A stretch of DNA of 64,000 nt from Paludibacteraceae bacterium (GTDB lineage Bacteria; Bacteroidota; Bacteroidia; Bacteroidales; Paludibacteraceae). Numbering within the stretch: the stretch's first letter is position 1; each line of letters opens with the position of its first letter. Below are positions 1,588 to 36,099 of this stretch, one piece after another. The stretch covers positions 36,071 to 100,070 of the forward strand of contig JAFVTU010000015.1 of NCBI GenBank assembly GCA_017503075.1. The letters are read 5' to 3'. Under the pieces are notes generated by a model. It was not told the origin of the DNA and did no database searches. It saw nothing but the letters and a program-made list of their open reading frames with translations. The position numbers and the translations under genes were made by a program.

Positions 1588-3588
1588 TTATTGGAAACGT
1601 GCGCGGTTGTCAATTACTTTAGCATCTTCTTGTATGAGACTGATTGCTTGGTAAGGAATCATGTAAGAAGTACGCATATTCAAGTTGCTGATTTCTTGAG
1701 CTGCATTAACTTCGCCTTCAGCAGCAGTCTTGCCATCAACGGTAAGTAAATATACTCCATTATTACCTTTTATGGGGGCAGAAACCTTATTTGTTTCTAA
1801 TGCTAAAGCAGTACCAATGACTGCAGGTTCTACTCCAGCAGCTCCAAGTCGATAGGAGGTTAATGAGATTCCTTCTGCAGATTTCACATCGGTATCAAAT
1901 AATTTTGCAGCATCTTCTAGAGAGTTGACGCCCTGAAGTTGTTTGATAATATACTCTGCTTTCTTATCATTGGTGGCAGTGATTATAAGTTCTGCACGGA
2001 CAGCCTCTAGTGAGCGATATTCGCTATCATTCACTTCTGTTAACGCTGCTACTACGAACTGATCACCACAAGTGAAAACATCACTAACTTGCCCTTGCTT
2101 TGCGCCAAATGCCCAGCGAACAATTTCGCGGCTGCTTTTCAAATCATTGATTTTGTCGGTGTTTTCGTTGAGTGCATATGCAGGATTAATGCTAAGTCCC
2201 TGTGCAAAAGCCGCTTGGTGGAGCGAGTCTGCATTGTTGTTGGCTACGACAAACTGTTTAGCTTGGTTGTAGATTGCGGCATATGTCTTGCTGCTAGCAG
2301 ATACTTTGCGTGAAAGGATTGCTAATTTTACTTTTGGAGTAGGTTTGCTCTTATCTAAGATCTTGAAAGTTTGTTCGTTCATACCGTTTGCAACGGTGAA
2401 TGTTTCGCCTTTCTTACCATCAAATGCAAGTTCCACCATATTAGTTGGAAGTACTGCAGCGGTAAACCATCCCAAATCTTGTATTTCTTCGTTGACAACT
2501 GCAGCCAATTTAACTGAATCTGACTTCTTGTAACCGCAATCCATCACGCGTGCAATAGAATAGGTGTCGTTATCAAAAGTTAACTCTGTACATTTTCCTT
2601 TTTTTACACCTTTCCCAAATGCGAACTCTTGATACTCAGCAGGAATTGTCTCCTTGGAATAATCGCGACCATCGTACAAGATATCAGAATTACCATTAAC
2701 GATAGCTGCTACATCTTCTTTGGTGCGGAAATCATTTTCAAGACTTTTAATGAGGCGTTCTGTTTCTGCGAAATCGTCAGCCGAAGGTACGATTGGGAAA
2801 ATAACGTACTCAATAGAGCGGTTAGGGGTTTGTTTGTATTGCTCTTTCTTTTGGCTGTAGAGATTCTTGAGATCGCTTTCCGTTACCTTAATAAGTGAGT
2901 CAGCTACAGCATAGTATGGTTGCTGAACATATTGAACATTGACAGTTTCTTGGCGTGCTTGGAATGCATATTTTGCATCAATATTATTGGCTGTAACCAT
3001 TTTGCTCAAAAGGTCAACATACTTTTCTTGCAAATATTGCAAGCGTACTGTGTTCTCCCAAAAGTTCCAGTAATTTTTGTATTGATTGATTACTTCGGCT
3101 TGCTCTGCATTTTCAGGTTCTTGTTCCAAAGATGCAAGGAAATTTACAAATGCAGTTCGATTAAAATTGCCGGTTTCATCATAGAAAGCGCGGCGTTGCA
3201 TAATGATTTGATGAGGGTTTGCACCGATGCACAACTCACTTAACTCCTCAGCAGTTACATCCATGCCGATCTTTTCAACTTGCTCACGTAGAGTATAGTC
3301 CATCAACATAGTTTGCCAAACTTGGTTGCGAATTTGCAGAGTCAAATCTTCATTAATGTCAGAAGTACCATACTCAAATTTGTAGACATCAGTTAACTGT
3401 TCTTTTGCAGCTTCATACTCGGTGTAATGAACATTGTGGCCAGCAATTTCTGCCACATTTTCTCGGTTTTTGTTGAAGAAACTGCTACTCCCATTGAGGA
3501 AGTCGCCTAAAATGAAAGCCAACATGGCGAGACCTACTACCACCAGCAAGATAGTGCCATGATTTCTAATTGATTGTAATGTTGCCAT
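1588..3588 (-). CDS. ppiD: PpiD-like periplasmic chaperone / peptidyl-prolyl isomerase (SurA N-terminal-like plus parvulin-like region)
   Basis: 666-aa ORF. The N-terminus MATLQSIRNHGTILLVVVGLAMLAFILGDF has the single TM anchor typical of PpiD. Length and architecture are consistent. Confidence 0.75.
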   Translation of the reverse strand: MATLQSIRNHGTILLVVVGLAMLAFILGDFLNGSSSFFNKNRENVAEIAGHNVHYTEYEAAKEQLTDVYKFEYGTSDINEDLTLQIRNQVWQTMLMDYTLREQVEKIGMDVTAEELSELCIGANPHQIIMQRRAFYDETGNFNRTAFVNFLASLEQEPENAEQAEVINQYKNYWNFWENTVRLQYLQEKYVDLLSKMVTANNIDAKYAFQARQETVNVQYVQQPYYAVADSLIKVTESDLKNLYSQKKEQYKQTPNRSIEYVIFPIVPSADDFAETERLIKSLENDFRTKEDVAAIVNGNSDILYDGRDYSKETIPAEYQEFAFGKGVKKGKCTELTFDNDTYSIARVMDCGYKKSDSVKLAAVVNEEIQDLGWFTAAVLPTNMVELAFDGKKGETFTVANGMNEQTFKILDKSKPTPKVKLAILSRKVSASSKTYAAIYNQAKQFVVANNNADSLHQAAFAQGLSINPAYALNENTDKINDLKSSREIVRWAFGAKQGQVSDVFTCGDQFVVAALTEVNDSEYRSLEAVRAELIITATNDKKAEYIIKQLQGVNSLEDAAKLFDTDVKSAEGISLTSYRLGAAGVEPAVIGTALALETNKVSAPIKGNNGVYLLTVDGKTAAEGEVNAAQEISNLNMRTSYMIPYQAISLIQEDAKVIDNRARFQ

Positions 3589-4624: not shown

Positions 4625-5911
4625 TTATAATACCATACCTTCAATATCCTCTTGTTGAATACCAGGTAATAGTAGTTGACGATTATCTGTAGATGTTATT
4701 TGTATAGTTTCTCCGATATGCTGCATCGTAGAGCACAATTCTTCTTGATTCTTAACTGTTCCCAATACTCGTACTGTAATTTGTGTGAGCAAACCTTTCA
4801 TCTCCTCTGTGATGGTTTCGCCAGGGAAATGTGTGAGTATTGAATCGATTACTCCATCTTCCTGCATCAATGTATCGCATCCATTTATTTCTGCGATTGT
4901 TCCTGGAGCACACAAACATGACACATTGTAACATGGGCTCATAGTCGCAGGATTCACTTTTTTGCTGATGTCCTCATCTGTCATTTTGCCTGTTAACGCA
5001 AAGTTGATAAGCATCTTCAGTGGATTGTAGCCAGATACCACTTCCAATATCTTATATTCCATAGAGCCAGTCAAACGATAACCAATATCATAGACATAGC
5101 ATGTGCCATCTTCTACTTTACATTGCATAAACATCATGCCGTTTTTTATTCCTAAGGCTGCAAACATCTTTTTTGCTTGCTCTTCAACTTCTTGCTTGTA
5201 CTTCGGAATGACAATAGAAGGGAATGTGTATCCAACAGGCAATGGTATTACATTCTCACCTTGGTTTTGTTTTACATGTCGATTTCCAATGGCAGACAAA
5301 TAATAATTTCCATCAACAAAAGTCCAGAATATGGTCACTTCGCGCCCTGTCATATACCGCTCAATAATTACCTCTCCTAGTTTGGAGGATTTTTTTGAAG
5401 CGGCCATAGCGTCTTGCAACTCTTTCTGATTGTGACATACATGTAGCCCTCGTGATCCACTACCATCTACAGGCTTAATGATTATGGGAAATTGAATATC
5501 GGTATCAGACGCATTGTATTGTTGGATGGTAGGAACATTAAACTTTTTACACCATTCTTTGTATAAGGCTTTGTTGGTTAATATTTCAAACTGTTCTTTG
5601 GTTCCGTAAGAAGGGAAATTGTTAATTTCACAAAGGTGCTGATATGCCAATAAATAAGAATCTGTAAAACCAGTGAGAATACCATCGACCTGATGCTCTT
5701 TGATTTGCTTAGTTAGCGAGTCATAATCTTCGATACTAGTATTCCAATATTCATCTGCCACTAATTTTGCGGGTGACCGCTTGGTATCATACCAGTCTGT
5801 AACAATAGTATAAATACCCATACTTTGAGCAGTTTTTACAATATCTACAGAAAAACTGTCACCTCCGATAATCAATAATTTTTTATTTTTTAAAGCCGAT
5901 ATCATATCCAT
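4625..5911 (-). CDS. ATP-grasp domain protein (carboxylate-amine ligase type)
   Basis: 428 aa. It has a pre-ATP-grasp Rossmann-like N-terminus (KLLIIGGDSFSVDIVK) and a central IIIKPVDGSGSRGLHVC ... E..I..Y pattern typical of the ATP-grasp fold. Confidence 0.65.
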   Translation of the reverse strand: MDMISALKNKKLLIIGGDSFSVDIVKTAQSMGIYTIVTDWYDTKRSPAKLVADEYWNTSIEDYDSLTKQIKEHQVDGILTGFTDSYLLAYQHLCEINNFPSYGTKEQFEILTNKALYKEWCKKFNVPTIQQYNASDTDIQFPIIIKPVDGSGSRGLHVCHNQKELQDAMAASKKSSKLGEVIIERYMTGREVTIFWTFVDGNYYLSAIGNRHVKQNQGENVIPLPVGYTFPSIVIPKYKQEVEEQAKKMFAALGIKNGMMFMQCKVEDGTCYVYDIGYRLTGSMEYKILEVVSGYNPLKMLINFALTGKMTDEDISKKVNPATMSPCYNVSCLCAPGTIAEINGCDTLMQEDGVIDSILTHFPGETITEEMKGLLTQITVRVLGTVKNQEELCSTMQHIGETIQITSTDNRQLLLPGIQQEDIEGMVL

Positions 5912-26068: not shown

Positions 26069-26734
26069 TTACTTTTTTTCAGCTTTTTCCAGCACCAAAA
26101 TGCTCACTATCATCGCAGCTACAGCCACGCTCAAGAAGAATACCACATCTCGCAAATCCACCACGCCACGCGAGATACTGCTATAGTGGTCTTGCAGCGT
26201 TACCCAATATAGTACAAAGCAGCTAACTGCACCTAAGATAAATGCCACTAGTTGGCTGCGTGTCACTGTACTGCAAAGCATGCCAATGCCTATGAACGAT
26301 GCGCTCAAGAGCACCAAACCCATCATGGAACCCGCGAATTGTCCGCCATCGATATTGCCTATCGGCTCTGCCATGTAGAAGACAATAAAGTAGTGCACAA
26401 CACATGGTAATAGGGCTATTACTGTAAGCACGAAAGATGCCATATACTTACCCACTACGATACGCCAAAGTGGAATAGGTTGTGCACGTAGTAGCAGCCA
26501 TGTTCCGCTTTGTCGCTCTTCGGCAAACAGACGCATGGTCAATGCGGGACACACGAGCATGAGTAGCCATGGACTGATTTGGAATAGTCCATCCACTTGT
26601 GCATAACCTGATTCGATGATGTTCCATTGCCCAGGTATCACCCATAGGAATAGACTCACTGCTAATAGAAACAACCCAATCACGATATACGCAATCGGCG
26701 TTGAAAAGTAATATGAGAGTTCTTTTCTGAACAT
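26069..26734 (-). CDS. ABC-2 type transporter permease (GldF-like)
   Basis: 221 aa with about 6 TM helices. The N-terminus MFRKELSYYFSTPIAYIVIGLFLL and the FAEERQSGTW motif resemble GldF/ABC-2 permeases. Confidence 0.55.
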   Translation of the reverse strand: MFRKELSYYFSTPIAYIVIGLFLLAVSLFLWVIPGQWNIIESGYAQVDGLFQISPWLLMLVCPALTMRLFAEERQSGTWLLLRAQPIPLWRIVVGKYMASFVLTVIALLPCVVHYFIVFYMAEPIGNIDGGQFAGSMMGLVLLSASFIGIGMLCSTVTRSQLVAFILGAVSCFVLYWVTLQDHYSSISRGVVDLRDVVFFLSVAVAAMIVSILVLEKAEKK

Positions 26735-26774
26735 GTGAATGTACTTTTTAATACTAACGTTCTAATTTTCTCTG

Positions 26775-26806
26775 CAAAAGTAGTGATTTATTTTGAGTTA
26801 TGCAAA
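26775..26806 (-). promoter_or_regulatory. Promoter of the permease/phosphoesterase unit
   Basis: caaaagta at 26775-26782 and gcaa at 26802-26805, giving TTGC-N19-TACTTTTG. Confidence 0.5.
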
Positions 26807-26880
26807 TATTTTATGTGTTTTTTATTCAATTTATATTTAGATACTGACCTTTTGTACTCATAAATTCCCTGCAAGTTTCG

Positions 26881-27030
26881 GGACCACCATTGGACATCTC
26901 TAGGACATCTATGGGCTTTCTGTGGCTTTTAGATTGCTCTCAAGTTGCCTGCGGGCTAGGCGACCATTTCGCGACCACTAGTGCCTATCTATTGCCTATT
27001 TGTGCCCTATTTATGGCTTTTAGTTTTCCG
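26881..27030. repeat. Array of doubled 10-12-nt words (phased filler) 3' of hsdR
   Basis: ggacatctcta/ggacatctatg, ggctttctgt/ggcttttaga, gcgaccatttc/gcgaccactag, and tgcctatctat/tgcctatttg/tgccctatttat. Also, 26903-26925 matches 63759-63781 at 21 of 23 positions. Confidence 0.75.
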
Positions 27031-27051
27031 TTTTTACTTCTCCGTTGATTT

Positions 27052-30000
27052 TTACACTATCCCTTGGTAGGAGATGATACCATGTAGTTGTTGGATATAG
27101 TCGCGTACACAGATGGTTTGGGCACCGAAGGTGTCCAGCCAATCCATATTGCTGAAGGGTTCTTCTGCAAATGTGTCGGTAGTGATGTCGCCATTGACGG
27201 ATACATAGTCCAGAATCTTCTTCAAGTACTCGCTTTGCATGGTGGTCAAGGCACTTGTTTGTATCAGGTCTATGAATTTCTGCAAAGCAATCTCACGGTC
27301 AATACCAATGATGGATCGAATGAATGCCGCGATATTTCCTCCGTACAACTTATAACGCTCTTGGCGGAGATAGGTATGCTCGTAGTCCTCCTTCGTGCCC
27401 AGTTCTTTCCAGAAGATTTGCTCTAGTTCGCGGATATCATCGTTGGTCAGTGGTTCGAGGTGGAAAATCTTTTGCAGTACCGTATCATCCTCTAAATGGG
27501 CTTGCAGATAGTCCATCACTTTTTGGCGATAGGTGGCTTGCATACTCACAGGAGTATCGCTATCTACAGGGGTGAGCACATCCTCAATATCAATGACAAA
27601 CGTCTTGCCCTGCTCGCCTGCGATATAATGAACGATGTCGCGCAGCTCTTGACGCACATACTCTGCTGATTGGAGTGTCTTGTTTTCCCAGAAAGCAGGT
27701 GTCTGCAAGAGGCGGATGGTCTCTATCTTACTGAGCACCTCTGGTATGCTGGCTTTCTTCTCCAATTGCTTGGCAATGGTTTGTATCTTGGCAGCAGGTT
27801 TGAGTCCGTTGACGGTGTCGTCGAGCATGGATAGTTCTTCCATGAAGTTAAGCAAGTCCCACTTGCGTGCCATCTCATCCACAGGCGGTGTGATGAGCAA
27901 TGGGGCTACTTCTTGCTCCAGTGATACGCGTTGAATATCAGAGATATACTGCCATGCTTTGGCTTGCTTGAACTGACTGACAATCTGCCAATGTTTGCGC
28001 ACGGCGGTGCGTGTGTCCTCCAATGTCTCCACTTGCATGCGCAGTTCGTCTTTCAGACGGTCGTGCAGTGCTTTGGCAGAGGGGTCTTCTTGGTATTTCA
28101 CATCTTGCAGGATAGTGGCTATGCGCAGTTTGATGGCAAAGAGCCGTTCGGTGAGCGAAGCGGAGCGCCGAGGTTCGGAGCCGTTGGGCTGGCTACCGAA
28201 ATACTCGAAGTTGCCGCAGTGGTCAAAGATATAGAACTGCTCTTTGTCTTTGCCCGCACCGAAGATATTAGGGCAGAGGCGTGTGCCTCGACCAATCATC
28301 TGCATGAACTTCACCTTGCTACGTACCTGCTTGAAGAACACCAGATTGAGTACATCGGGCACGTCCACACCCGTGTCGAGCATATCCACGCTGACGGCAA
28401 TCTGTATTTTCTTCTTTTGGTCTTGTGGTGCTGCAGAGAAATTATCAATAAGGTCTTGTCCGTACTTCACTTGGTTGTCAATAAGCGTACAGAAGTCAGG
28501 TCCGTATTGTGGATAGAGCGCATTGAATCGCTCCACAATCATCTCGGCGTGTTTGTGGCGATAGGCAAAGATAATGGTCTTGCCGATAGTATCGCCATCA
28601 TTGACGCGCAAGCCGTTTTCCATCAGGTCTTCTAGCACTTTGTCGATGGTGTCTTGGTTGTAGAAGACTTGGAAAATCTCTTTGGCATCAATATCGCGTG
28701 CGTATTCCGATCGTGGGTCGAGTGCTAACTTGGCTTTTTCGTATGCCCATGCGGTTTCGAGTTGTTGTTTCTCTTGTGGGGACAGGTCATCGTATTTAAC
28801 GCCTTGGGTCATGATGATAGACTGGCGTTGTAGAACATTATACCCCACGAGGTGGTGCTCCTTAACGGCATCTTCCAGTTCGTATGCGAACACATCATCG
28901 CTATCGGTGTTGAGCAGCGAATAGGTGTCGTGCTCAATGTCCTCGCGTGGGGTGGCAGTGAGACCCACGAGCAGGCCATCGAAATAGTCGAAGATACTCT
29001 CGTAGCGACCATAGCAACTGCGGTGTGCCTCGTCGATGATAATGAGGTCGAAGCGACCGATAGAGAAGGGCTTCTTCTCGCTGTCGATATAGTGAATCAT
29101 GGTCTGGTAGGTAGAGAACATGATGCGTGCATCCATATCGGGGTTGCGGTCGTCAGATAGCACGCAGGTGCTGACGGATGGCAGCAGTTTGGTATAGTTG
29201 CGCCATGCTTGTTTGACAAGGGCGGTTCGGTCGGCAAGGAAGAGGACATTCTTCACCCAGTTGTTGCGCATGAGCAGTTCCACGAGAGCGATACTGACGC
29301 GGGTCTTACCCGTACCCGTAGCCATGACCAGCAGTCCGCGGCGCATCTTCTTATTCAGACGCTCCACGATAGAGTGGATGGCTTGTATCTGATAGGCGCG
29401 TCCCGCGATGTCGGGGTTCACGCGCAGGTCTGTGATATTCTGACGGTTGCGTTTTTGGATTAGCAGTTCGAGATTGGATGCGGTATGGAAACTATAGAGA
29501 GGGCGTGGGGGATAACCCAGTCCGTCGATGACCCATGTCTCGAAGCCATTGGTGTAATATACCACAGGGCGCACGCCATATCGTTGCTCAAGGCAATAGG
29601 CATAAAGTTCGGCTTGGTGTTTGCCGATCAGAGGGTCAACGGTGGTTTTCTTGGCTTCTACTACCGCCAGCGGTTTGCCATCGGTGCCAAAGAGTACATA
29701 GTCGGCATAGCCGACACCACTCTCGGATGGCATACCTTTGACCTCTATCTCCACGCATGCCGTACCAGGCACGGTAGCCCCCTCTTTCTCTTGCACCTCC
29801 CAACCCGCTTCGCGGAGCATCATGTCGATATATAGGCGGCGTGTCTCGGCTTCAGATGGCGCATCTGGACTGCTCTTGATGACTATAGGTGCGGGGGCGA
29901 CTTGCGACAGGCGGTTGAGGTCGTCGTTCTGGATGAGTTCATCGCCGCCTACCGACACCGCTGTTAGCATGACGGTGGTTGGGATGAGTGTCTTATCAAA

Positions 30001-30393
30001 AGGAGCGTAGTCTTCGATGACATGCAGCGATTGTAGAAAAGAGCTGATGACTTCGTAGAGGTTGAGCACTGCGAAGAAGGACTCAGACTTCTTGACTGTG
30101 CCACCATGCGCACCTATATTCCCGCGCTTGCGGATATAGTCGATGCGCTTCATCATGTCCATGCCTACATACTCTTGGAAGAGGAAGAAACTGGTGAGTT
30201 CGAGCAATGAGGCACGCTCGGGGATACGCCAGTCGTTGATGAGATACACAATCTTCACCCATTTCTCTAGAGCGCGGCGTGCTGCAGTGACACTCTTGTC
30301 GGGTGCTACCAACTGAAACTGCTCCGCATCGCGGCAGTCGGGATAAACGGAGTGCATCTCGCGTATGTCTTTTAGATAGTCGAAGTTTGCCAT
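27052..30393 (-). CDS. hsdR: Type I restriction enzyme R subunit (N-terminal DUF4145-like region, SF2 helicase/translocase, nuclease)
   Basis: 1113 aa with helicase motif I LVMATGTGKT and motif II IIIDEAHRS, in an operon with hsdM and hsdS. Confidence 0.9.
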   Translation of the reverse strand: MANFDYLKDIREMHSVYPDCRDAEQFQLVAPDKSVTAARRALEKWVKIVYLINDWRIPERASLLELTSFFLFQEYVGMDMMKRIDYIRKRGNIGAHGGTVKKSESFFAVLNLYEVISSFLQSLHVIEDYAPFDKTLIPTTVMLTAVSVGGDELIQNDDLNRLSQVAPAPIVIKSSPDAPSEAETRRLYIDMMLREAGWEVQEKEGATVPGTACVEIEVKGMPSESGVGYADYVLFGTDGKPLAVVEAKKTTVDPLIGKHQAELYAYCLEQRYGVRPVVYYTNGFETWVIDGLGYPPRPLYSFHTASNLELLIQKRNRQNITDLRVNPDIAGRAYQIQAIHSIVERLNKKMRRGLLVMATGTGKTRVSIALVELLMRNNWVKNVLFLADRTALVKQAWRNYTKLLPSVSTCVLSDDRNPDMDARIMFSTYQTMIHYIDSEKKPFSIGRFDLIIIDEAHRSCYGRYESIFDYFDGLLVGLTATPREDIEHDTYSLLNTDSDDVFAYELEDAVKEHHLVGYNVLQRQSIIMTQGVKYDDLSPQEKQQLETAWAYEKAKLALDPRSEYARDIDAKEIFQVFYNQDTIDKVLEDLMENGLRVNDGDTIGKTIIFAYRHKHAEMIVERFNALYPQYGPDFCTLIDNQVKYGQDLIDNFSAAPQDQKKKIQIAVSVDMLDTGVDVPDVLNLVFFKQVRSKVKFMQMIGRGTRLCPNIFGAGKDKEQFYIFDHCGNFEYFGSQPNGSEPRRSASLTERLFAIKLRIATILQDVKYQEDPSAKALHDRLKDELRMQVETLEDTRTAVRKHWQIVSQFKQAKAWQYISDIQRVSLEQEVAPLLITPPVDEMARKWDLLNFMEELSMLDDTVNGLKPAAKIQTIAKQLEKKASIPEVLSKIETIRLLQTPAFWENKTLQSAEYVRQELRDIVHYIAGEQGKTFVIDIEDVLTPVDSDTPVSMQATYRQKVMDYLQAHLEDDTVLQKIFHLEPLTNDDIRELEQIFWKELGTKEDYEHTYLRQERYKLYGGNIAAFIRSIIGIDREIALQKFIDLIQTSALTTMQSEYLKKILDYVSVNGDITTDTFAEEPFSNMDWLDTFGAQTICVRDYIQQLHGIISYQGIV

Positions 30394-30427
30394 GGTGGTG
30401 ATTTTAGGGGCTTGGTTGATTTTTTAT

Positions 30428-30447
30428 CCCGCGGGGGTACCCGCGGG
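30428..30447. repeat. GC palindrome cccgcggg-ggta-cccgcggg in the X-hsdR spacer
   Basis: A perfect 8-bp stem. No U-run follows it on the minus transcript, so it is not a canonical terminator. Confidence 0.7.
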
Positions 30448-30553
30448 CACTAAACCGGTGGGGATATATTGTTTGTTATTTAATTTTGTTTATTATTTAT
30501 ATTAAGTACTGGATTGGCTGCTCTGTTTTTACTATTTCTGCGATATTGGAGTT

Positions 30554-31663
30554 TTAGTTGGTTTCGTGCTCGGGGTTAATTCGCCGAGCTATTTCGTCTG
30601 CTATCATATTCATCGCTACGAAACGATAGCGCTGCGATTCATGCGGGATATGCCCCACCTTCGCTTCTGTCAAAGCAACGATATCCTTGCGCTCAAGTAA
30701 CTCCTTGTCTGGTTCTATCAACAGCAACTTGCCTGCTGCGCATGCCTCGAAATACACGCCCTGTGGTTTGAAATAACGATAGTGCGGGTCTTCGGGTTTG
30801 GGAAAGCCCTCGTGCAGTATCACAATCAGCGGATAACCGTTCTCGCGTAAAGCTTGAGCGATCTGTTTCTCACCTTCGGAGATGGCACCAGTAATATGCA
30901 CGACGCCTTCCGCAGCATTAGCCAAGCACTGGGCCTTCTGCATATCAATCTGCTCTTGGGTCAAGCGACGTGAGCACTGGATGACCTGCTTGATTGGATA
31001 GTCGGCAAGAAACATATTACCCAAAGTGGTACATGGCAAGTGGTTGAGGGATATGTTTTGATGTATCTTGAAAAGCTCCTTATTGGCGCGTTTGAGGGCG
31101 AGACGGCGAGGGTTATCCTGTATGTAACGCTTCATGTTAGCGAGTTGCCCCTTGCGGGTGAGTATGCGATCGTGGTACTCGGGTGCAAAAGGGAAAAACT
31201 TATCGCTCGGCGAATTAGCGCCGAGCACTGGACCAGTGGAAGAGGAGAGCATAGAACTCGGCGAATTAACGCCGAGCACTGAAGCGGTGGCGAGTTGCTG
31301 ATAGATGAGCGTGCATTGGCGCTTAAACCATCCGATATATTGACCGATATGCTTGGGTAGTCGCTCGTGAATATGCAACAATATATGCACATGGTCAGGC
31401 ATAACTACATAAGAGTATATCTCTATCGCTGAGGCATTTTTGTATGTAGGGATATGCTCTATCTCTTCTGCTATGCACTGCCCTAATGCGGTGCGCACTA
31501 TCTCCTCACCTTGTAAATAACCAAAAAGCGGAAGCCGATCGGTAGTGACTAAAGTTAGTAACAGAGTGGCTGGATTCTGATAATCCAACCAATGGGCTCT
31601 GCGATGGTTACTGGTTTTCTTCTCACATCGCCACCCTTCTTCTGTTTTGTATCTTTCCGCCAT
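30554..31663 (-). CDS. RAYT-like HUH/Y1 (IS200-like transposase fold) protein with a C-terminal DprA/SLOG-like extension, embedded in the Type I R-M operon
   Basis: HUH motif VVMPDHVHILLHI. The EYHDRILTRKGQLANMKRYIQDNPRRLAL segment parallels the RAYT FHDHALR...ARYIVANP signature. The C-terminal pattern IQCSRRLT...GVVHITGAISEGEKQIAQALRENGYPLIVILHEGF recalls the DprA Rossmann core. The gene starts 9 nt after the hsdS stop. Confidence 0.55.
   Translation of the reverse strand: MAERYKTEEGWRCEKKTSNHRRAHWLDYQNPATLLLTLVTTDRLPLFGYLQGEEIVRTALGQCIAEEIEHIPTYKNASAIEIYSYVVMPDHVHILLHIHERLPKHIGQYIGWFKRQCTLIYQQLATASVLGVNSPSSMLSSSTGPVLGANSPSDKFFPFAPEYHDRILTRKGQLANMKRYIQDNPRRLALKRANKELFKIHQNISLNHLPCTTLGNMFLADYPIKQVIQCSRRLTQEQIDMQKAQCLANAAEGVVHITGAISEGEKQIAQALRENGYPLIVILHEGFPKPEDPHYRYFKPQGVYFEACAAGKLLLIEPDKELLERKDIVALTEAKVGHIPHESQRYRFVAMNMIADEIARRINPEHETN
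30566..30588 (-). repeat. REP-like hairpin copy D (reverse orientation, inside the last codons of gene X)
   Basis: The + strand gtg ctcgggg ttaatt cgccgag is the reverse complement of ctcggcg aattaa ccccgag cac, with one stem mismatch relative to copies B and C. Confidence 0.7.
31206..31247 (+). repeat. REP-like hairpin copy A with 3' extension, in frame inside gene X
   Basis: ctcggcg aattag cgccgag cactggaccagtggaagaggag. It shares roughly 38 of 42 positions with copy C. Confidence 0.75.
31257..31280 (+). repeat. REP-like hairpin copy B, in frame inside gene X
   Basis: ctcggcg aattaa cgccgag cact. The 24 nt are identical to the first 24 nt of copy C. Confidence 0.75.
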
Positions 31664-31672
31664 GGTAAGTTG

Positions 31673-32842
31673 TTATCCAAAATACTGATCCATGCGCTGG
31701 GCATGGAGGGATTCGACGTCCTTAATGCTCTGGCTGATGAATCGCTTCTGCTCCTCTATCGCACTGACCTTCGCAGCAAATGACTGCTGAAGAGAAAGGG
31801 GAGGGCATAAAATAGGCATACTATTTAAACTTTTTTGACTAAAAGTAGGAATTGCAGTGCCTATCACAAATTCATTATATTTTATTTTTGCAGCCTCACT
31901 TTGTAAATATGCCGTTAAATATCGGCTAATGATTTTATGCTCTTTTATAACAACAAATTGAGGATTTATTGTCGCCTCATGTGGTAAAAAATCAACATAA
32001 GCACATTTACCATAGGAAGATCCTGTTTTTACTAGTAATATATCCCCATTCTTAACCATAATTTCGGGTGATTCATTATATTTATCCCATGTTACATACG
32101 AACATTTAGAATAATCCATCTGATTATTGATGATATTTGTTGGACTTAATGAGATTGCACCATCTTTAGAACTATCCACAAAATCATTTCTCGTATAACC
32201 TCTAAAACCGATCCGACCTTTAACATCACACACCTCTCCAAGTTTTTTGATTTCCCAGCCCATGGGGTTGGTGATGGGGTCGCCGAACATTTGGTAAAAG
32301 AGAGATTGGGCAAGATTATCCAATGCACGAAGCTGCTCCTGCTTCTTCTCTATAACCGAATGAAGCAAATCTAACTCACTAACGATAGAACGCTGAATAG
32401 ATAATGGAGGGATGGGGATGGAGAAATCAGACATAGCAGATTTCGACAACTCCTTAAAAGTTGCCCCAACACCGAAGGATTGTAATAATGGGATATTATA
32501 TGTTAAACACCAATAGACATATTCATTATACAAGTTGTCGCCACAAATAACATTCTTAAACCCTTGATTACAATACATAGGTGCGGTTGTTATCGCAACC
32601 TTTCCTATTGGAGCACGAGAAGAAAATAACACTGTGCCAATAGGTAGTAATTGTAATTTAGATGCAGCTTTGTCTGAAATAGTTCTTTGTGTTTTTCCAA
32701 AATACTTACTCCCGTCTAACTCAGCTGGAGTAACCCACATATTAGAACCCTCCCAATTGGCAGGCTCAGATGTTTTAGGGGTAGAACCTCCTACTATCTC
32801 CGCTACCTCCCCCAGTTTCTTATATGTCCAATCTTTTTTCAT
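31673..32842 (-). CDS. hsdS: Type I R-M specificity subunit
   Basis: 389 aa with two target-recognition halves, each opening with a KLGEV...GGSTP / KLGEVCDVKGR-type motif, separated by conserved helical spacers. It overlaps hsdM by 4 nt. Confidence 0.88.
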   Translation of the reverse strand: MKKDWTYKKLGEVAEIVGGSTPKTSEPANWEGSNMWVTPAELDGSKYFGKTQRTISDKAASKLQLLPIGTVLFSSRAPIGKVAITTAPMYCNQGFKNVICGDNLYNEYVYWCLTYNIPLLQSFGVGATFKELSKSAMSDFSIPIPPLSIQRSIVSELDLLHSVIEKKQEQLRALDNLAQSLFYQMFGDPITNPMGWEIKKLGEVCDVKGRIGFRGYTRNDFVDSSKDGAISLSPTNIINNQMDYSKCSYVTWDKYNESPEIMVKNGDILLVKTGSSYGKCAYVDFLPHEATINPQFVVIKEHKIISRYLTAYLQSEAAKIKYNEFVIGTAIPTFSQKSLNSMPILCPPLSLQQSFAAKVSAIEEQKRFISQSIKDVESLHAQRMDQYFG

Positions 32843-34335
32843 CCGATAATCTCTTTGAGGTTGGTGAGGGCAGTTTGGATGTCGTTTTCGAGGGCTTCGA
32901 TACGAGAGAGGATGGTTTGTGGATCCTCGTGCTGCACGGCTACGCGCTCGATCTCTTTGTACTTATTGAACGAGAGGTCGTAGTCGTTGGCGCGGATATC
33001 CTCTACAGGTACCAAGAAGGACTGGTCTTTGCGTGAGCGGTTTTCCTCATCCGCCAGATTATTCCAGCGAGCAATCACATCGGGGATGTCGTTCTCCTGC
33101 ACTGGGCTGCGTTTGTCGTCCAGCGAGAAGCCATCGGCACGCATCTCATAGAACCACACCTTATCCGTACCGCCGTGGTCGGTCTTGGTGAAGATAAGGA
33201 TAGCGGTGCTGACACCTGCGTAGGGTTTGAACACGCCACTGGGCATAGAGATGACGGCTTGCAAGCGTTGGTTGTCCACCAATTCTTGGCGGAGCATCTT
33301 GTGGGCTTTGCTGGAGCCAAAGAGCACGCCATCGGGTACGATACTCGCGCAGCGGCCACCGAGTGCCAAGGAACGGATAAAAAGCGAGAGGAACAGCAGT
33401 TCGGTCTTACCCGTATTGGTGAGCGTGAGGAGGTTCTTATTCACTACCTCTTTGTCCAGACTGCCCGCGAAAGGTGGGTTGGCGAGGATAAGGGAGTAGC
33501 ATTGGTGGTCGTTGTTGTCGCCACTGAGACTGTCGCGCCATTGGATATTAGGTGCGTCCACGCCGTGGAGCATCATGTTCATTGCACCAATACGGAGCAT
33601 GGTCTGGTCGGTATCGAAGCCGTGGAAGATCTGCGTCTTGTAGCGTTTTTGTGTGGCGGGGTCGAGGAGTTGCTTCTCGTAGTGTTCGCGGAGGTACTTG
33701 GCACTCTCCACGATGAAGCCCGCCGAGCCCATAGCAGGGTCGCAGATAGCATCGTCCAGAGTAGGGCGCACGAGGTTGACCATCATACTGATGATATGGC
33801 GAGGAGTGCGGAACTGACCATTGGTGCCGCTGGCAGCCATCTTGCCGAGGATATACTCATAGACATCACCCATAGCATCGCGGTTGTTCATGTCGAGGGC
33901 ATTGATGCCGTCCACCACGCGCTGGAGCGTGCGGGCATTAGGGATAAGGAAAATAGCCGAACCCATATAGCGGGCATAGGCACTCTCGCCACTGCTTTCG
34001 CCGATATGCTTGATGAAGACAAACACATTATCACGCACCATGCGAAGCATGTTGTCGGCACTGGTGTTCTTGAAAACCGACCAGCGCATGTCTTGGTAAG
34101 GCACTTCCTTCTCGGTCTCGGGGTTGAGCCAGTTGCCCTCGGGGAAAACGGGGTTCTTGAGTCGGTTGCCGAAAATGCTGGCAGTAGCCTCCTCCTTGCG
34201 CTGTTTATCGTCGAGCATCTTCATGAAGAAGAGGTAGGTCATCTGCTCGAGAACGGATATGGGGTTGGTGACGCCTGCGGTGTAGAACACATCCCAGATT
34301 TGGTCAATCCTGTTTTTAATTTCGCCTGTGATCAT
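32839..34335 (-). CDS. hsdM: Type I R-M N6-adenine DNA methyltransferase subunit
   Basis: 498 aa with the catalytic motif LILANPPFAG, the AdoMet motif DPAMGSAGF and an HsdM N-terminal domain. Confidence 0.92.
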   Translation of the reverse strand: MITGEIKNRIDQIWDVFYTAGVTNPISVLEQMTYLFFMKMLDDKQRKEEATASIFGNRLKNPVFPEGNWLNPETEKEVPYQDMRWSVFKNTSADNMLRMVRDNVFVFIKHIGESSGESAYARYMGSAIFLIPNARTLQRVVDGINALDMNNRDAMGDVYEYILGKMAASGTNGQFRTPRHIISMMVNLVRPTLDDAICDPAMGSAGFIVESAKYLREHYEKQLLDPATQKRYKTQIFHGFDTDQTMLRIGAMNMMLHGVDAPNIQWRDSLSGDNNDHQCYSLILANPPFAGSLDKEVVNKNLLTLTNTGKTELLFLSLFIRSLALGGRCASIVPDGVLFGSSKAHKMLRQELVDNQRLQAVISMPSGVFKPYAGVSTAILIFTKTDHGGTDKVWFYEMRADGFSLDDKRSPVQENDIPDVIARWNNLADEENRSRKDQSFLVPVEDIRANDYDLSFNKYKEIERVAVQHEDPQTILSRIEALENDIQTALTNLKEIIG

Positions 34336-34355
34336 AGTATGTATTATTTAGCCCG

Positions 34356-34386
34356 CAAAGTTACGGAATTTTTGGGAGATATGCAA
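34356..34386 (-). promoter_or_regulatory. Promoter of the hsdM-hsdS-X-hsdR operon
   Basis: caaagtta at 34356-34363 and gcaa at 34383-34386, giving TTGC-N19-TAACTTTG. I found no CAAAnnTA-type motif in the 160-nt gap before hsdR. Confidence 0.55.
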
Positions 34387-34432
34387 GGAAATGGCGAGTT
34401 TTTTGCTATTTATTGTTTAAAGGCGGGGATTA

Positions 34433-34474
34433 CTCGGCGAATTAACGCCGAGCACTGGACTAGTGGGAGAGGGG
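34433..34474 (+). repeat. REP-like hairpin copy C with 3' extension, upstream of the hsdM promoter
   Basis: ctcggcg aattaa cgccgag cactggactagtgggagagggg. Confidence 0.75.
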
Positions 34475-34475
34475 C

Positions 34476-34740
34476 AATCTTAACAAAAAGCATTTTTGTA
34501 GGCGAGGAGTTGAGTCGGAGTTCTCTCGGTCGTCTCTCGGAGTTCTCTCGGTAGAATTAGGCAAGGTATAAGAGAAGTAAAAGAGACGGTAATCTTAATA
34601 AAACACACATTTTGAGTTTGGGAGTTCTTTCGGTTTTCCTTGGTTCTTCTTTGGTTCGTCCTTGGTTATTAACACGAGAAAGACAGGGAAGGTACAAGGG
34701 AAGGAAATCTTAATAAAATGCCTTTTAAATCTATAAACTA
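34476..34740. repeat. Degenerate 115-bp tandem repeat (two full units and a partial third) with internal 11-nt sub-repeats
   Basis: The anchor aatcttaa[c/t]aaaa occurs at 34476, 34591 and 34706, exactly 115 nt apart. Each full unit has a pyrimidine-rich phased block followed by a purine-rich block. Confidence 0.65.
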
Positions 34741-34761
34741 TGAGTGATAAGTGATAAACAA

Positions 34762-34800
34762 AATCGCCATCCATGCTCGAAAACACAAATGGCGATTTGT
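34762..34800 (-). terminator. Possible terminator of the nucleoside permease gene
   Basis: The 10-bp stem is aaatcgccat / atggcgattt (34761-34770 / 34789-34798) with an 18-nt loop, followed by TGTTTAT on the minus transcript. The loop is large, so confidence is low. Confidence 0.3.
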
Positions 34801-34818
34801 TGTTATGTAGGACTTATG

Positions 34819-36099
34819 TTAGTCTTTCTTCACTGGGGTCTTTGGGAAGATTATCCAGAAGGCAATGGCAACTACCAATGCAAAACCTGCGAAGATATAC
34901 CAGCTGGTTTGCCAGCCATCCCAAATAGCCATTGGACCTGCAGCAATCACAGATTCTGCATTAACGAAATGGTTTACAATCGCTTGCGCTGCCAATGTAC
35001 CAATCGTTGCACCAAAGCCGTTGGTCATCATCACAAACAGACCTTGTGCGCTAGAGCGTTGTGCAGGGTCGGTCTCTTGATCCACATACAGCGAGCCAGA
35101 GATATTGAAGAAGTCAAAAGCAAAGCCATAGACGATACAGCTTAATACGAACAAGATCACGCCTGGCATACCTGGGTTACCTGCGCCGAAGAAGCCGAAA
35201 CGCAATACCCATGCCAGCATTGCCATCAGCATCACCGACTTGATACCAAAACGCTTCAAGAAGAATGGGATAAACAAGATACACAATGCCTCACAGATTT
35301 GTGAGATAGAAATCAGGATATTTGCATGTTGTACGCCAAAAGTATCGGCAAACTCCTCAATCGCTCCGAAGCTGGTAATGAATGGGTTAGCGTAGCCATT
35401 GGTGATTTGCAAGCACATACCAAGCAACATAGAGAAGATGAAGAATACTGCCATCTTCTTTTGTTTGAACAGCGCAAATGCCTCCAAACCGAGTGCTTCC
35501 ACCAGCGATTTGTTCTCCACATGACCTTTGGTTGGGCACTTAGGCAAAGTGAGCGAGTAGATAGCGAGTACAATACTCAACGCACCACTGACAACGAATT
35601 GCTTAGGAGTAGCTTGGAATCCACAGAGATCCACTACCCACATGGTCACAATAAATCCTACTGTACCGAGTACGCGGATAGGAGGGAAGTCCTTCACTGT
35701 ATCCATGTTTGCTTGCGTTAATGCGGTATAAGCCACGGAGTTGCTGAGTGCAAGGGTTGGCATAAAGAATGCCACCGAAGCGGTGTAAAGCGAGAATAGT
35801 GTAGCAAATTGTACGCCGTCGCCTGCAAAGAGGCCATAAGCACCTGTAGCAATCATAAAGGTACCTGCCAATGCGTGGCAAAGACTCAATGCTTTCTGAG
35901 CAGGAATCCAACGGTCTGCCACGATACCCATGAGTGCGGGCATAAACAAGCTGACGATACCTTGGATGGAATAAAACCAGCCGATATTGGTAGCCATACC
36001 ATGCGTAGCGAGGTAGGTACCCATTGATGTTAAATACGCTCCCCAAACGGCAAATTCGAGGAAGTTCATGACTGTTAGTCGAAGTTTGATGTTTTTCAT
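34819..36099 (-). CDS. MFS nucleoside:H+ symporter family permease (NupG/XapB-like)
   Basis: 426 aa and 12 TM. The N-terminus MKNIKLRLTVMNFLEFAVWGAYLTSMGTYL is typical of the NHS family. Confidence 0.75.
   Translation of the reverse strand: MKNIKLRLTVMNFLEFAVWGAYLTSMGTYLATHGMATNIGWFYSIQGIVSLFMPALMGIVADRWIPAQKALSLCHALAGTFMIATGAYGLFAGDGVQFATLFSLYTASVAFFMPTLALSNSVAYTALTQANMDTVKDFPPIRVLGTVGFIVTMWVVDLCGFQATPKQFVVSGALSIVLAIYSLTLPKCPTKGHVENKSLVEALGLEAFALFKQKKMAVFFIFSMLLGMCLQITNGYANPFITSFGAIEEFADTFGVQHANILISISQICEALCILFIPFFLKRFGIKSVMLMAMLAWVLRFGFFGAGNPGMPGVILFVLSCIVYGFAFDFFNISGSLYVDQETDPAQRSSAQGLFVMMTNGFGATIGTLAAQAIVNHFVNAESVIAAGPMAIWDGWQTSWYIFAGFALVVAIAFWIIFPKTPVKKD

Follow-up and report, generated by a model that had tools for sequence, protein, structure and literature searches.

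Why should a gene that joins a transposase-like nuclease to a DprA-like domain lie inside a restriction-modification (R-M) operon? The question is raised by a stretch of 64,000 nt, hereafter the window, from a Paludibacteraceae bacterium (GCA_017503075.1, contig JAFVTU010000015.1, positions 36,071–100,070 of the forward strand), where an open reading frame (ORF) that we call X is found between hsdS and hsdR of a Type I system. Homologous loci in other genomes are labelled L001, L002 etc., L001 being that of a sister strain. We describe X as a domesticated enzyme encoded on the chromosome, a Y1 HUH protein of the RAYT/TnpA_REP kind, belonging to an unnamed, mainly Bacteroidales subfamily that carries a DprA-like fusion. 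On balance we think it probable that X acts on single-stranded DNA (ssDNA) at hairpins by cutting and rejoining it, that its C-terminal domain takes care of ssDNA (possibly involving RecA), and that the recombination-prone site thus formed would explain the turnover of restriction cassettes upstream of X, its arrangement within the hsd operon included. The gene and its predicted parts are as follows.

30554–31663, reverse strand: gene X, an ORF of 369 aa starting with ATG, predicted to encode a Y1 HUH nuclease fused to a DprA-like domain
31085–31663, reverse strand: HUH/Y1 domain, aa 1–193, with the HUH histidines H91 and H93 and the catalytic Y180 in RYIQDNP (Pfam, NCBIfam, Foldseek and conservation)
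31190–31303, reverse strand: variable disordered loop, aa ~121–158, joining helix C to strand 4; its coding sequence consists of two 51-nt units, each with a hairpin
30584–31066, reverse strand: DprA-like Rossmann (SLOG-type) domain, aa ~200–360 (domain model and fold matches in the PDB)

The N-terminal half can be assigned securely, from its sequence and its predicted structure, to the Y1 HUH nucleases of the RAYT/TnpA_REP kind, as the earlier note on this DNA had proposed from the motifs PDHVHILLH (aa 89–97), EYHDRIL (aa 162–168) and MKRYIQDNPRRLAL (aa 177–190), all of which are present in X. The Pfam model Y1_Tnp (PF01797) is passed narrowly, at 24.5 bits against a gathering score of 23 bits; NCBIfam REP_Tyr_transpos matches aa 32–188 with 38.5 bits, which is below its cut-off of 80 bits. 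The AlphaFold2 model of X, built with 48 homologues, contains two well-folded domains with a predicted local distance difference test score (pLDDT) of about 85–90 each; in this model the HUH motif opens strand 91–98, and Y180 is carried on helix 173–193 together with N184, the polar residue at position Y+4. The nearest structures found by Foldseek for the N-terminal domain are ISDra2, IS608 and IS200 TnpA (2xma, with the best E-value of 9e-6, 2a6m and 2f4f), with the E. coli RAYT 4ER8 at 2e-4. Six residues (H91, H93, Y180, N184, P185 and R187) are invariant in 82 of 82 family members down to 27% identity, and the family-wide conservation of the catalytic His and Tyr on which the earlier note had made its proposal depend is thus what we observed. 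The EYHD site is variable in these 82 sequences, with Y or F at position 163 and H, N or C at position 164.

X shares with the RAYTs of the E. coli YafM type (4ER8) the HUH motif, the single catalytic Tyr within Y-x3-N-P, the fold and, it appears, the low copy number; it differs from them in its score below the NCBIfam equivalog cut-off and in the possession of an extra 170-aa DprA-like domain. The IS200/IS605 TnpA proteins (IS608, ISDra2) are its best structural matches, and by analogy their recognition of subterminal hairpins on ssDNA is the chemistry that would be expected of X. Unlike these proteins, however, X is not encoded by a multi-copy insertion sequence, has Y-x3-N and not Y-x3-Q, exceeds them more than twofold in size and is not accompanied by tnpB, of which no copy was found in the annotated neighbourhoods of X. 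The possibility that X is an ordinary IS200/IS605 copy was considered and rejected on account of its single copy in the window, the lack of tnpB in the annotated neighbourhoods and the inverted ends.

The resemblance of the C-terminal half to DprA had been noticed in the earlier note, which pointed to IQCSRRLT and GVVHITGAISEGEKQIAQALRENGYPLIVILHEGF; both are present in X, and the resemblance stands at the level of the fold and falls at the level of the sequence. Modelled alone, the C-terminal 170 aa reached pLDDT 86 and a predicted template modelling (TM) score of 0.81, and its 14 best PDB fold matches are ShosA or DprA without exception, at match probabilities of 0.85–1.0. ShosA (8ZVA) was matched with E 1e-3 and TM 0.51, DprA from four species with E 5e-3 to 5e-2 and TM 0.40–0.53; beyond these 14 there is a gap to E >0.47, after which weak LOG, MoCo-carrier and TRPM N-terminal (SLOG-type) folds appear mixed with unrelated proteins. 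At the sequence level no match to Pfam PF02481 was obtained at E up to 1 and the PDB profile search gave transposases only; the viral structure library yielded nothing significant for this domain. Judged by the model, the C-terminal half is DprA-like by fold and not by family membership. The likeness to DprA/Smf and ShosA (3UQZ, 4LJK, 5MLL, 3MAJ, 8ZVA), the sole significant PDB matches, lies in the Rossmann-type fold, and that to DprA also in the motif order, GSR and SGxAxGID in DprA being paralleled in X by CSR and then T/S-x-A-I-S-x-G-E-K. X differs from them in being without SAM or winged-helix domains and without a ShosT partner, no such phosphoribosyltransferase toxin being found among the neighbours of X in the window and L001. 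The domain is strongly conserved across homologues of 27–97% identity and is nearly confined to the C-terminus of 330–450-aa proteins of the X architecture (508 representative clusters, E up to 1e-3).

A point that the earlier note had missed is that the loop of the nuclease half is built from in-frame copies of a hairpin. For this hairpin, ctcggcg-(t/c)taatt-cgccgag with a 7-bp stem, 0.02 matches would be expected in the window and four were found; they are all located at 30.5–34.5 kb and none in the other 60 kb. The hairpins of the window, a fifth with another stem included, fold as ssDNA at −7.7 to −11.8 kcal/mol with z of −2.8 to −4.4.

31257–31280, reverse strand: hairpin, internal copy 1, AGTG CTCGGCG TTAATT CGCCGAG (ssDNA fold −8.7 kcal/mol, z −3.9)
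31206–31229, reverse strand: hairpin, internal copy 2, AGTG CTCGGCG CTAATT CGCCGAG (ssDNA fold −10.7 kcal/mol, z −3.2)
30566–30588, forward strand: inverted hairpin copy at the 3′ end of X, where the gene strand encodes the C-terminal ARRINPEH (inverted-repeat pairs, alignment and fold)
34433–34456, reverse strand: direct hairpin copy ~100 nt upstream of hsdM, with ~40 nt in common with an internal copy
30428–30451, reverse strand: hairpin 2 in the X–hsdR gap, with the same AGTGC foot and a different stem, AGTG CCCGCGGG TACC CCCGCGGG (−11.8 kcal/mol)

The two 51-nt units of the loop are 76% alike and were recovered as a direct repeat; Tandem Repeats Finder reported no array in 30400–31800. The loop is disordered in the model (pLDDT ~30 at aa 130–153), and it accounts for the whole difference in length among the homologues, which range from 319 to 448 aa (n = 818) and diverge in size solely in the stretch that leads from helix C (WFKxQC) to strand 4 (FAPEYHDR). 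The minimal loop seen in the relatives has 26 aa, and among proteins that are more than 90% identical outside it the number of units varies from 1 to ~8 with the frame always kept; every repeat insertion in the intact homologues is in frame and in this one tolerant loop.

The copies around the gene are polymorphic as well. L001 lacks the one that the window has upstream of hsdM, the flanks of the two being 93% identical there, and it carries a copy downstream of hsdR that has no counterpart in the window. In a JGI metagenome scan the exact hairpin turned up on three contigs that lack X, either between genes or at a gene end. For the hairpin copy of L090 a clean insertion relative to the window could not be shown, one flank being non-homologous. 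In other lineages the hairpins are different ones: L005 and L016 have the loop hairpin CTTGCGG-TTCCGT-CCGCAAG with a 100% complementary copy after the stop codon, and in L005 an additional copy lies between the upstream gene and X; L088 has a 72-nt element upstream of the gene that is 93% identical to its loop element; and L023 contains two distinct elements, each of which recurs upstream of the gene, within the loop and at the 3′ end, with 89–97% identity. The layout of a REPtron, in which cognate, lineage-specific palindromes flank the gene, is thus seen in the window, L001, L005, L016, L023 and L088. Since the hairpins are of high identity within a locus and different between lineages, the nuclease and its cognate repeats appear to evolve together, and this co-variation of the flanking hairpins with the protein is a further likeness to the RAYT/TnpA_REP REPtrons. 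It is secure that the hairpins of X constitute a REPtron and that some of these hairpins are translated into a loop which the protein tolerates. The suggestion of the earlier note that X is a domesticated RAYT maintaining local hairpin repeats fits best with these lineage-specific, strain-polymorphic hairpins in and around the gene.

Two further observations were made on the placement of such elements. In the loop of a 75% relative an opposite-orientation pair of hairpins (L091:1642–1664 and 1723–1745) forms a REPIN-like in-frame doublet. In the protein P0130 (1082 aa) the upstream gene is fused to an X homologue, and the hairpin-encoded peptides IAHTCAIP and SASMRY, derived from opposite strands, recur in frame at several places, the unrelated upstream part included; palindromic elements can therefore enter other coding sequences. 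Rickettsia palindromic elements likewise enter coding sequences.

Part of this picture is already known, namely the nuclease family, the REPtrons and the in-frame repetitive extragenic palindromes (REPs). REPs inserted in frame within tnpA_REP genes were published for TnpA_Y1 subclass 2.4, which is RAYT group 4 (Quentin et al. 2018, PMC6006769), and this subclass resembles X in its variable-length region and its occurrence in Bacteroidetes (PMC6006769). Its members differ, however, in their size of ~194 aa, their motifs NH[IFV]H / WQ / YIxNNP and the absence of a C-terminal domain (PMC6006769), the motifs of X being DHVH / YH / YIQDNP; moreover, their variable insert is placed between strand 3 and helix C and that of X between helix C and strand 4. 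DprA is not mentioned by Quentin et al. 2018 (PMC6006769). In the literature searchable here neither the DprA-like fusion nor its repeated placement behind restriction systems was found, and nothing contradicted the view of the earlier note that an HUH–DprA-like architecture inside an hsd operon had not been described. An association of TnpA_REP with variable prochlorosin gene cassettes has been reported, its authors later cautioning on causality (10.1101/2020.03.09.984088).

In a scan of one genome per GTDB species 184 relatives of X were confirmed and the best 80 kept; among these 80 nearly all are uncultured Bacteroidales, with a few Verrucomicrobia, Kiritimatiellia and Lentisphaerae, and the nearest (76%) is from a Paludibacteraceae metagenome-assembled genome (MAG). 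X is present in one copy in the 64 kb, and two MAGs have two divergent paralogues each (L024 and L041; L068 and L086). No relative of X was found in 72,556 plasmids, and none in 50,697 phages. Below, the closer clade comprises the relatives of at least 35% identity (36 GTDB species) and the distant clade those of 27–37%, mostly Muribaculaceae.

In 11 of the 36 closer-clade species a restriction gene is located upstream of X, intact in 7 and as a remnant in 4, and a rough estimate puts the chance expectation for such a neighbour at ~1%. These genes are always upstream of X and on its strand, and they belong to five kinds of system.

Window and L001: Type I hsdMS upstream, same strand
L005, L014–17, L035 and L094/95: MmeI-type enzyme upstream, same strand
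L019, L028, L031 and L034: MmeI remnants upstream, mostly of the C-terminal end
L098–100: Type II 5-methylcytosine (m5C) methylase with small ORFs upstream, same strand
L023: GmrSD upstream, same strand
L033: McrBC upstream, same strand

At the first downstream position, in 75 loci, the 25 commonest families include no restriction family. The check suggested in the earlier note, for a linkage of homologues to hsdM, hsdS and hsdR across Bacteroidota, came out negative: in a search of 87 loci (L001–L087), hsd genes flank X nowhere but in L001 and in the window. The MmeI-linked X proteins occupy at least four separate places on the neighbour-joining tree of X, and the interval between YbjQ and X is occupied by MmeI in L094, by a Type II m5C system in L098. 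Many close relatives, L008 (75–76%), L088, L089 and L012 among them, lie beside non-defence genes, and other close relatives are without a restriction neighbour. The association with restriction genes does not extend to the distant clade, where X is downstream of ComM/YifB (ChlI, Mg_chelatase and Mg_chelatase_C domains) on the same strand in L053, L058, L059, L076, L078, L081, L084 and L087, and downstream of GuaA in four loci; the 508-aa upstream gene of L064 is GuaA by Pfam. GuaA is also upstream in L034, with the MmeI remnant between it and X. ComM and DprA share one transformation-recombination pathway, and the position of ComM/YifB next to X could be a functional hint or mere Muribaculaceae synteny.

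Traces of change at the borders of X were seen in several of these loci. The last 40–50 aa of MmeI are encoded on both sides of X in L028 (1360–1476 and 2671–2826) and L034 (6868–6999 and 9037–9144), which suggests that the 3′ end of the MmeI gene was duplicated around X. In L098 the Type II m5C cassette that immediately precedes X is flanked on either side by a 38-nt direct repeat (3003–3040 and 5781–5818, 92% identical) with the small palindrome TAGTTTA-GTTA-TAAACTA in it; this repeat did not recur in the other loci, save for a weak 40-nt match upstream of MmeI in L005 (4970–5009). In the assemblies of L002 and L003 (6861–13756) X shares a block with a 345-aa gene and some ten small ORFs, none of these neighbours being annotated; the right flank of the block is the same in both and the left flanks differ, which suggests rearrangement or mobility at the block boundary. 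VapE-like or DUF3987 element genes adjoin X in L096 and L089. Among the eight unannotated upstream neighbours of X homologues, none was matched by a PADLOC model. When L094:6001–6490 is compared with L016:9932–10340, the flanks are ~90% identical and the HUH-encoding 5′ half of X is unalignable at the DNA level, the proteins being 66% identical; as judged from such alignments, X, and its nuclease half especially, is evolving much faster than its neighbours.

The operon of the window has, besides X, the following parts.

27052–30393, reverse strand: hsdR (PADLOC REase_I, 4.6e-161)
31673–32842, reverse strand: hsdS (PADLOC Specificity_I, 9.3e-63)
32839–34335, reverse strand: hsdM (PADLOC MTase_I, 1.2e-181)
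34356–34363, reverse strand: Bacteroidetes-type −7 promoter motif TAACTTTG, a TAnnTTTG match ~20 nt upstream of hsdM

The 369-aa ORF begins 9 nt after the hsdS stop codon and ends 160 nt before hsdR, in agreement with the earlier description, and hsdM and hsdS overlap by 4 nt. In the nearest hsd operons outside the species (HsdR 57–60% identical) hsdM, hsdS and hsdR are contiguous; because hsdS there directly precedes hsdR, X appears as an insertion into a normally contiguous operon, and the earlier picture of a gene wedged between the two is upheld. The TAnnTTTG motif upstream of hsdM is the sole intergenic match on the operon strand in 30394–34400, one more being inside hsdS, and a scan of this strand found none in the X–hsdR gap, as had been claimed; co-transcription of X with the hsd genes is therefore plausible. 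Scans for sigma-70 promoters and terminators, whose coverage does not include Bacteroidetes promoters, gave chance level only. No Rfam match at E up to 0.1 was obtained in 26500–35000, hairpins included, and X itself was matched by no PADLOC model. A 16-nt direct repeat, TCGGAGTTCTCTCGGT, is present three times (two exact, one 88%) at 34515–34634, upstream of the hairpin and the hsdM promoter region.

Compared with the window, L001 has hsdM 100% and hsdR 97% identical. The hsdS genes (31673–32842 and L001:6879–7991) are just 44% identical, and their DNA alignment is limited to short conserved blocks; such divergence beside near-identical hsdM and hsdR indicates, at the level of sequence, a swapping of target-recognition domains. 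In L001 a gene for a YobI-like P-loop NTPase of 1251 aa (L001:9417–13172) lies between X and hsdR, and this YobI-ATPase cassette stands exactly 3′ of hairpin 2, in place of 22 nt of the window, the homology of the two loci breaking at this point. X is like the accessory genes of Type I R-M systems (the PrrC/RloC type, or the YobI-like ATPase of L001) in its place between hsdS and hsdR, its strand and its minimal spacing. It is unlike them in that its homologues have no conserved hsd linkage and in its predicted nature: neither anticodon nuclease nor NTPase, it would act on DNA hairpins and has repeats of its own. A role of X as a subunit of the Type I enzyme was also considered and rejected, the hsd linkage being lineage-specific in the loci searched.

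How, then, may X have come to its place? In the explanation that we favour, the HUH domain would recognise the hairpin with its AGTGC foot on ssDNA and would cut and rejoin the strand via Tyr180, and the DprA-like domain would serve to hold ssDNA or to dimerise, with a possible recruitment of RecA. As a net result the hairpins would be copied locally and a site prone to recombination would arise beside X, at which restriction cassettes are gained, swapped and left to decay directly upstream, and X would in this way have come to lie inside the hsd operon. X would ride on the transcription of whatever restriction cassette is upstream, and it would be neither a subunit nor a required partner of the Type I enzyme. 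The reading of the site as a hotspot that receives insertions is drawn from the contiguity of the related hsd operons, from the YobI-ATPase found at hairpin 2 in L001 and from the variation of the cassettes (MmeI, m5C systems, remnants, GmrSD, McrBC). That X does not need a restriction gene follows from the decay of MmeI at loci where X stays intact.

Several points weigh against this explanation. As far as the window and the metagenomic contigs show, the hairpins are few and mostly local, unlike the high-copy dispersal by which classical REPs are defined (>100 per genome). The similarity to DprA is moderate (TM ~0.5) and has no support in the sequence. The one-sided placement of restriction genes, upstream and on the same strand, is unpredicted by a passive variable-region model and could reflect real functional coupling. 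X also departs from the typical RAYTs in having YH(D) where these have the conserved W motif WQ/WE, and in the AGTGC foot of its hairpins, the typical guide being GT[AG]G (PMC6006769).

The functional coupling just mentioned would make X a working accessory of restriction systems, co-transcribed with them and engaged in the same conflict through its action on DNA that is single-stranded or forms hairpins, a reading that we regard as doubtful, though worth keeping in view. X might nick incoming conjugative, transforming or ssDNA-phage DNA which, being single-stranded, the double-strand-specific restriction enzymes cannot cut, or it might, by analogy with the DprA-like antitoxin ShosA, load RecA in order to repair the breaks that restriction causes in the cell's own DNA. 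The earlier note had thought of such an accessory, and that part of its proposal which concerns adjacency gained strength, since five unrelated restriction types (Type I, MmeI, Type II m5C, GmrSD, McrBC) are found immediately before X on its strand, with an intact or decayed restriction gene upstream in 11 of 36 closer-clade species and none among the 25 commonest families at the first position downstream. The 9-nt gap after hsdS and the lack of a −7 motif before hsdR speak for the same reading, as do the faster evolution of X than of its flanks and the closest solved fold, ShosA, which comes from a defence system. The part that concerned the hsd genes themselves weakened, their linkage being lineage-bound and the distant relatives lying beside the housekeeping genes ComM/YifB and GuaA. 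Moreover, PADLOC has no model that matches X, many close relatives (L008, L088, L089, L012) and the whole distant clade have non-defence neighbours, the restriction systems are of four mechanistically unlike types (I, IIG, II, IV) without an obvious common mechanism, the cognate hairpins are in the host's own locus and not in invaders, and MmeI decays while X stays intact. Taken by itself, the association with restriction genes fits a hotspot of cassette turnover and functional coupling equally well. It is also conceivable, if unlikely, that X and its hairpins form a dedicated ssDNA recombination platform for capturing and exchanging restriction or defence cassettes immediately upstream: the HUH nuclease would nick at the hairpins that mark the junctions, RecA would be loaded by the DprA-like domain onto the strand thus exposed, and a different restriction system arriving with incoming DNA would take the place of the resident one. 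Such an arrangement would amount to an integron-like device made from a domesticated transposase, and the ComM/YifB genes upstream of the distant members would belong to the same recombination pathway.

Quite unlikely, in our opinion, is an active transposase that moves together with the restriction genes as a composite single-strand transposon, the hairpins being its ends and the R-M system providing post-segregational stabilisation. Such an element would account for the bracketing of hsdM-hsdS-X by the hairpins at 34433–34456 and 30566–30588, for the MmeI C-terminal fragments that flank X in L028 and L034, for the block of the 345-aa gene and X in two left-hand contexts (L002 and L003), for the VapE-like/DUF3987 neighbours in L096 and L089 and for the scatter of the MmeI-linked proteins over the X tree. 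The bracketing hairpins, however, are inverted, whereas the ends of IS200/IS605 elements share one strand, and the bracket leaves hsdR outside; there are no multi-copy, near-identical X genes, no tnpB in the annotated neighbourhoods and no X in the plasmid and phage collections; and X at the YbjQ locus seems to be orthologous from species to species, the restriction cassette being a different one. A decaying selfish remnant without present activity, whose position is the accident of one insertion, would agree with the single copy in the window, the invasion of the reading frame by repeats and the restriction of the hsd linkage to one lineage. This is highly improbable in view of an ORF that is intact in hundreds of homologues, of the invariant catalytic residues and the highly conserved C-terminal domain at 27–97% identity, and of repeat insertions which, in intact homologues, are always in frame and in one tolerant loop. 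The domesticated enzyme with its own hairpins and a recombination-prone flank thus remains our preferred account of X.

As to the host role of RAYT-type enzymes, the DprA-like fusion points to a coupling of hairpin nicking with ssDNA handling or RecA loading. The repeatable position of X at the 3′ end of five kinds of restriction operon offers an experimental handle on this role. The family is large (508 representative clusters at 50% identity), wholly without annotation, and nearly all its known members come from uncultured gut bacteria. If the link to restriction is functional, X would represent a new type of accessory for the restriction systems of gut Bacteroidales; if the link reflects a hotspot, a mechanism would be at hand by which restriction systems turn over rapidly from one strain to the next.

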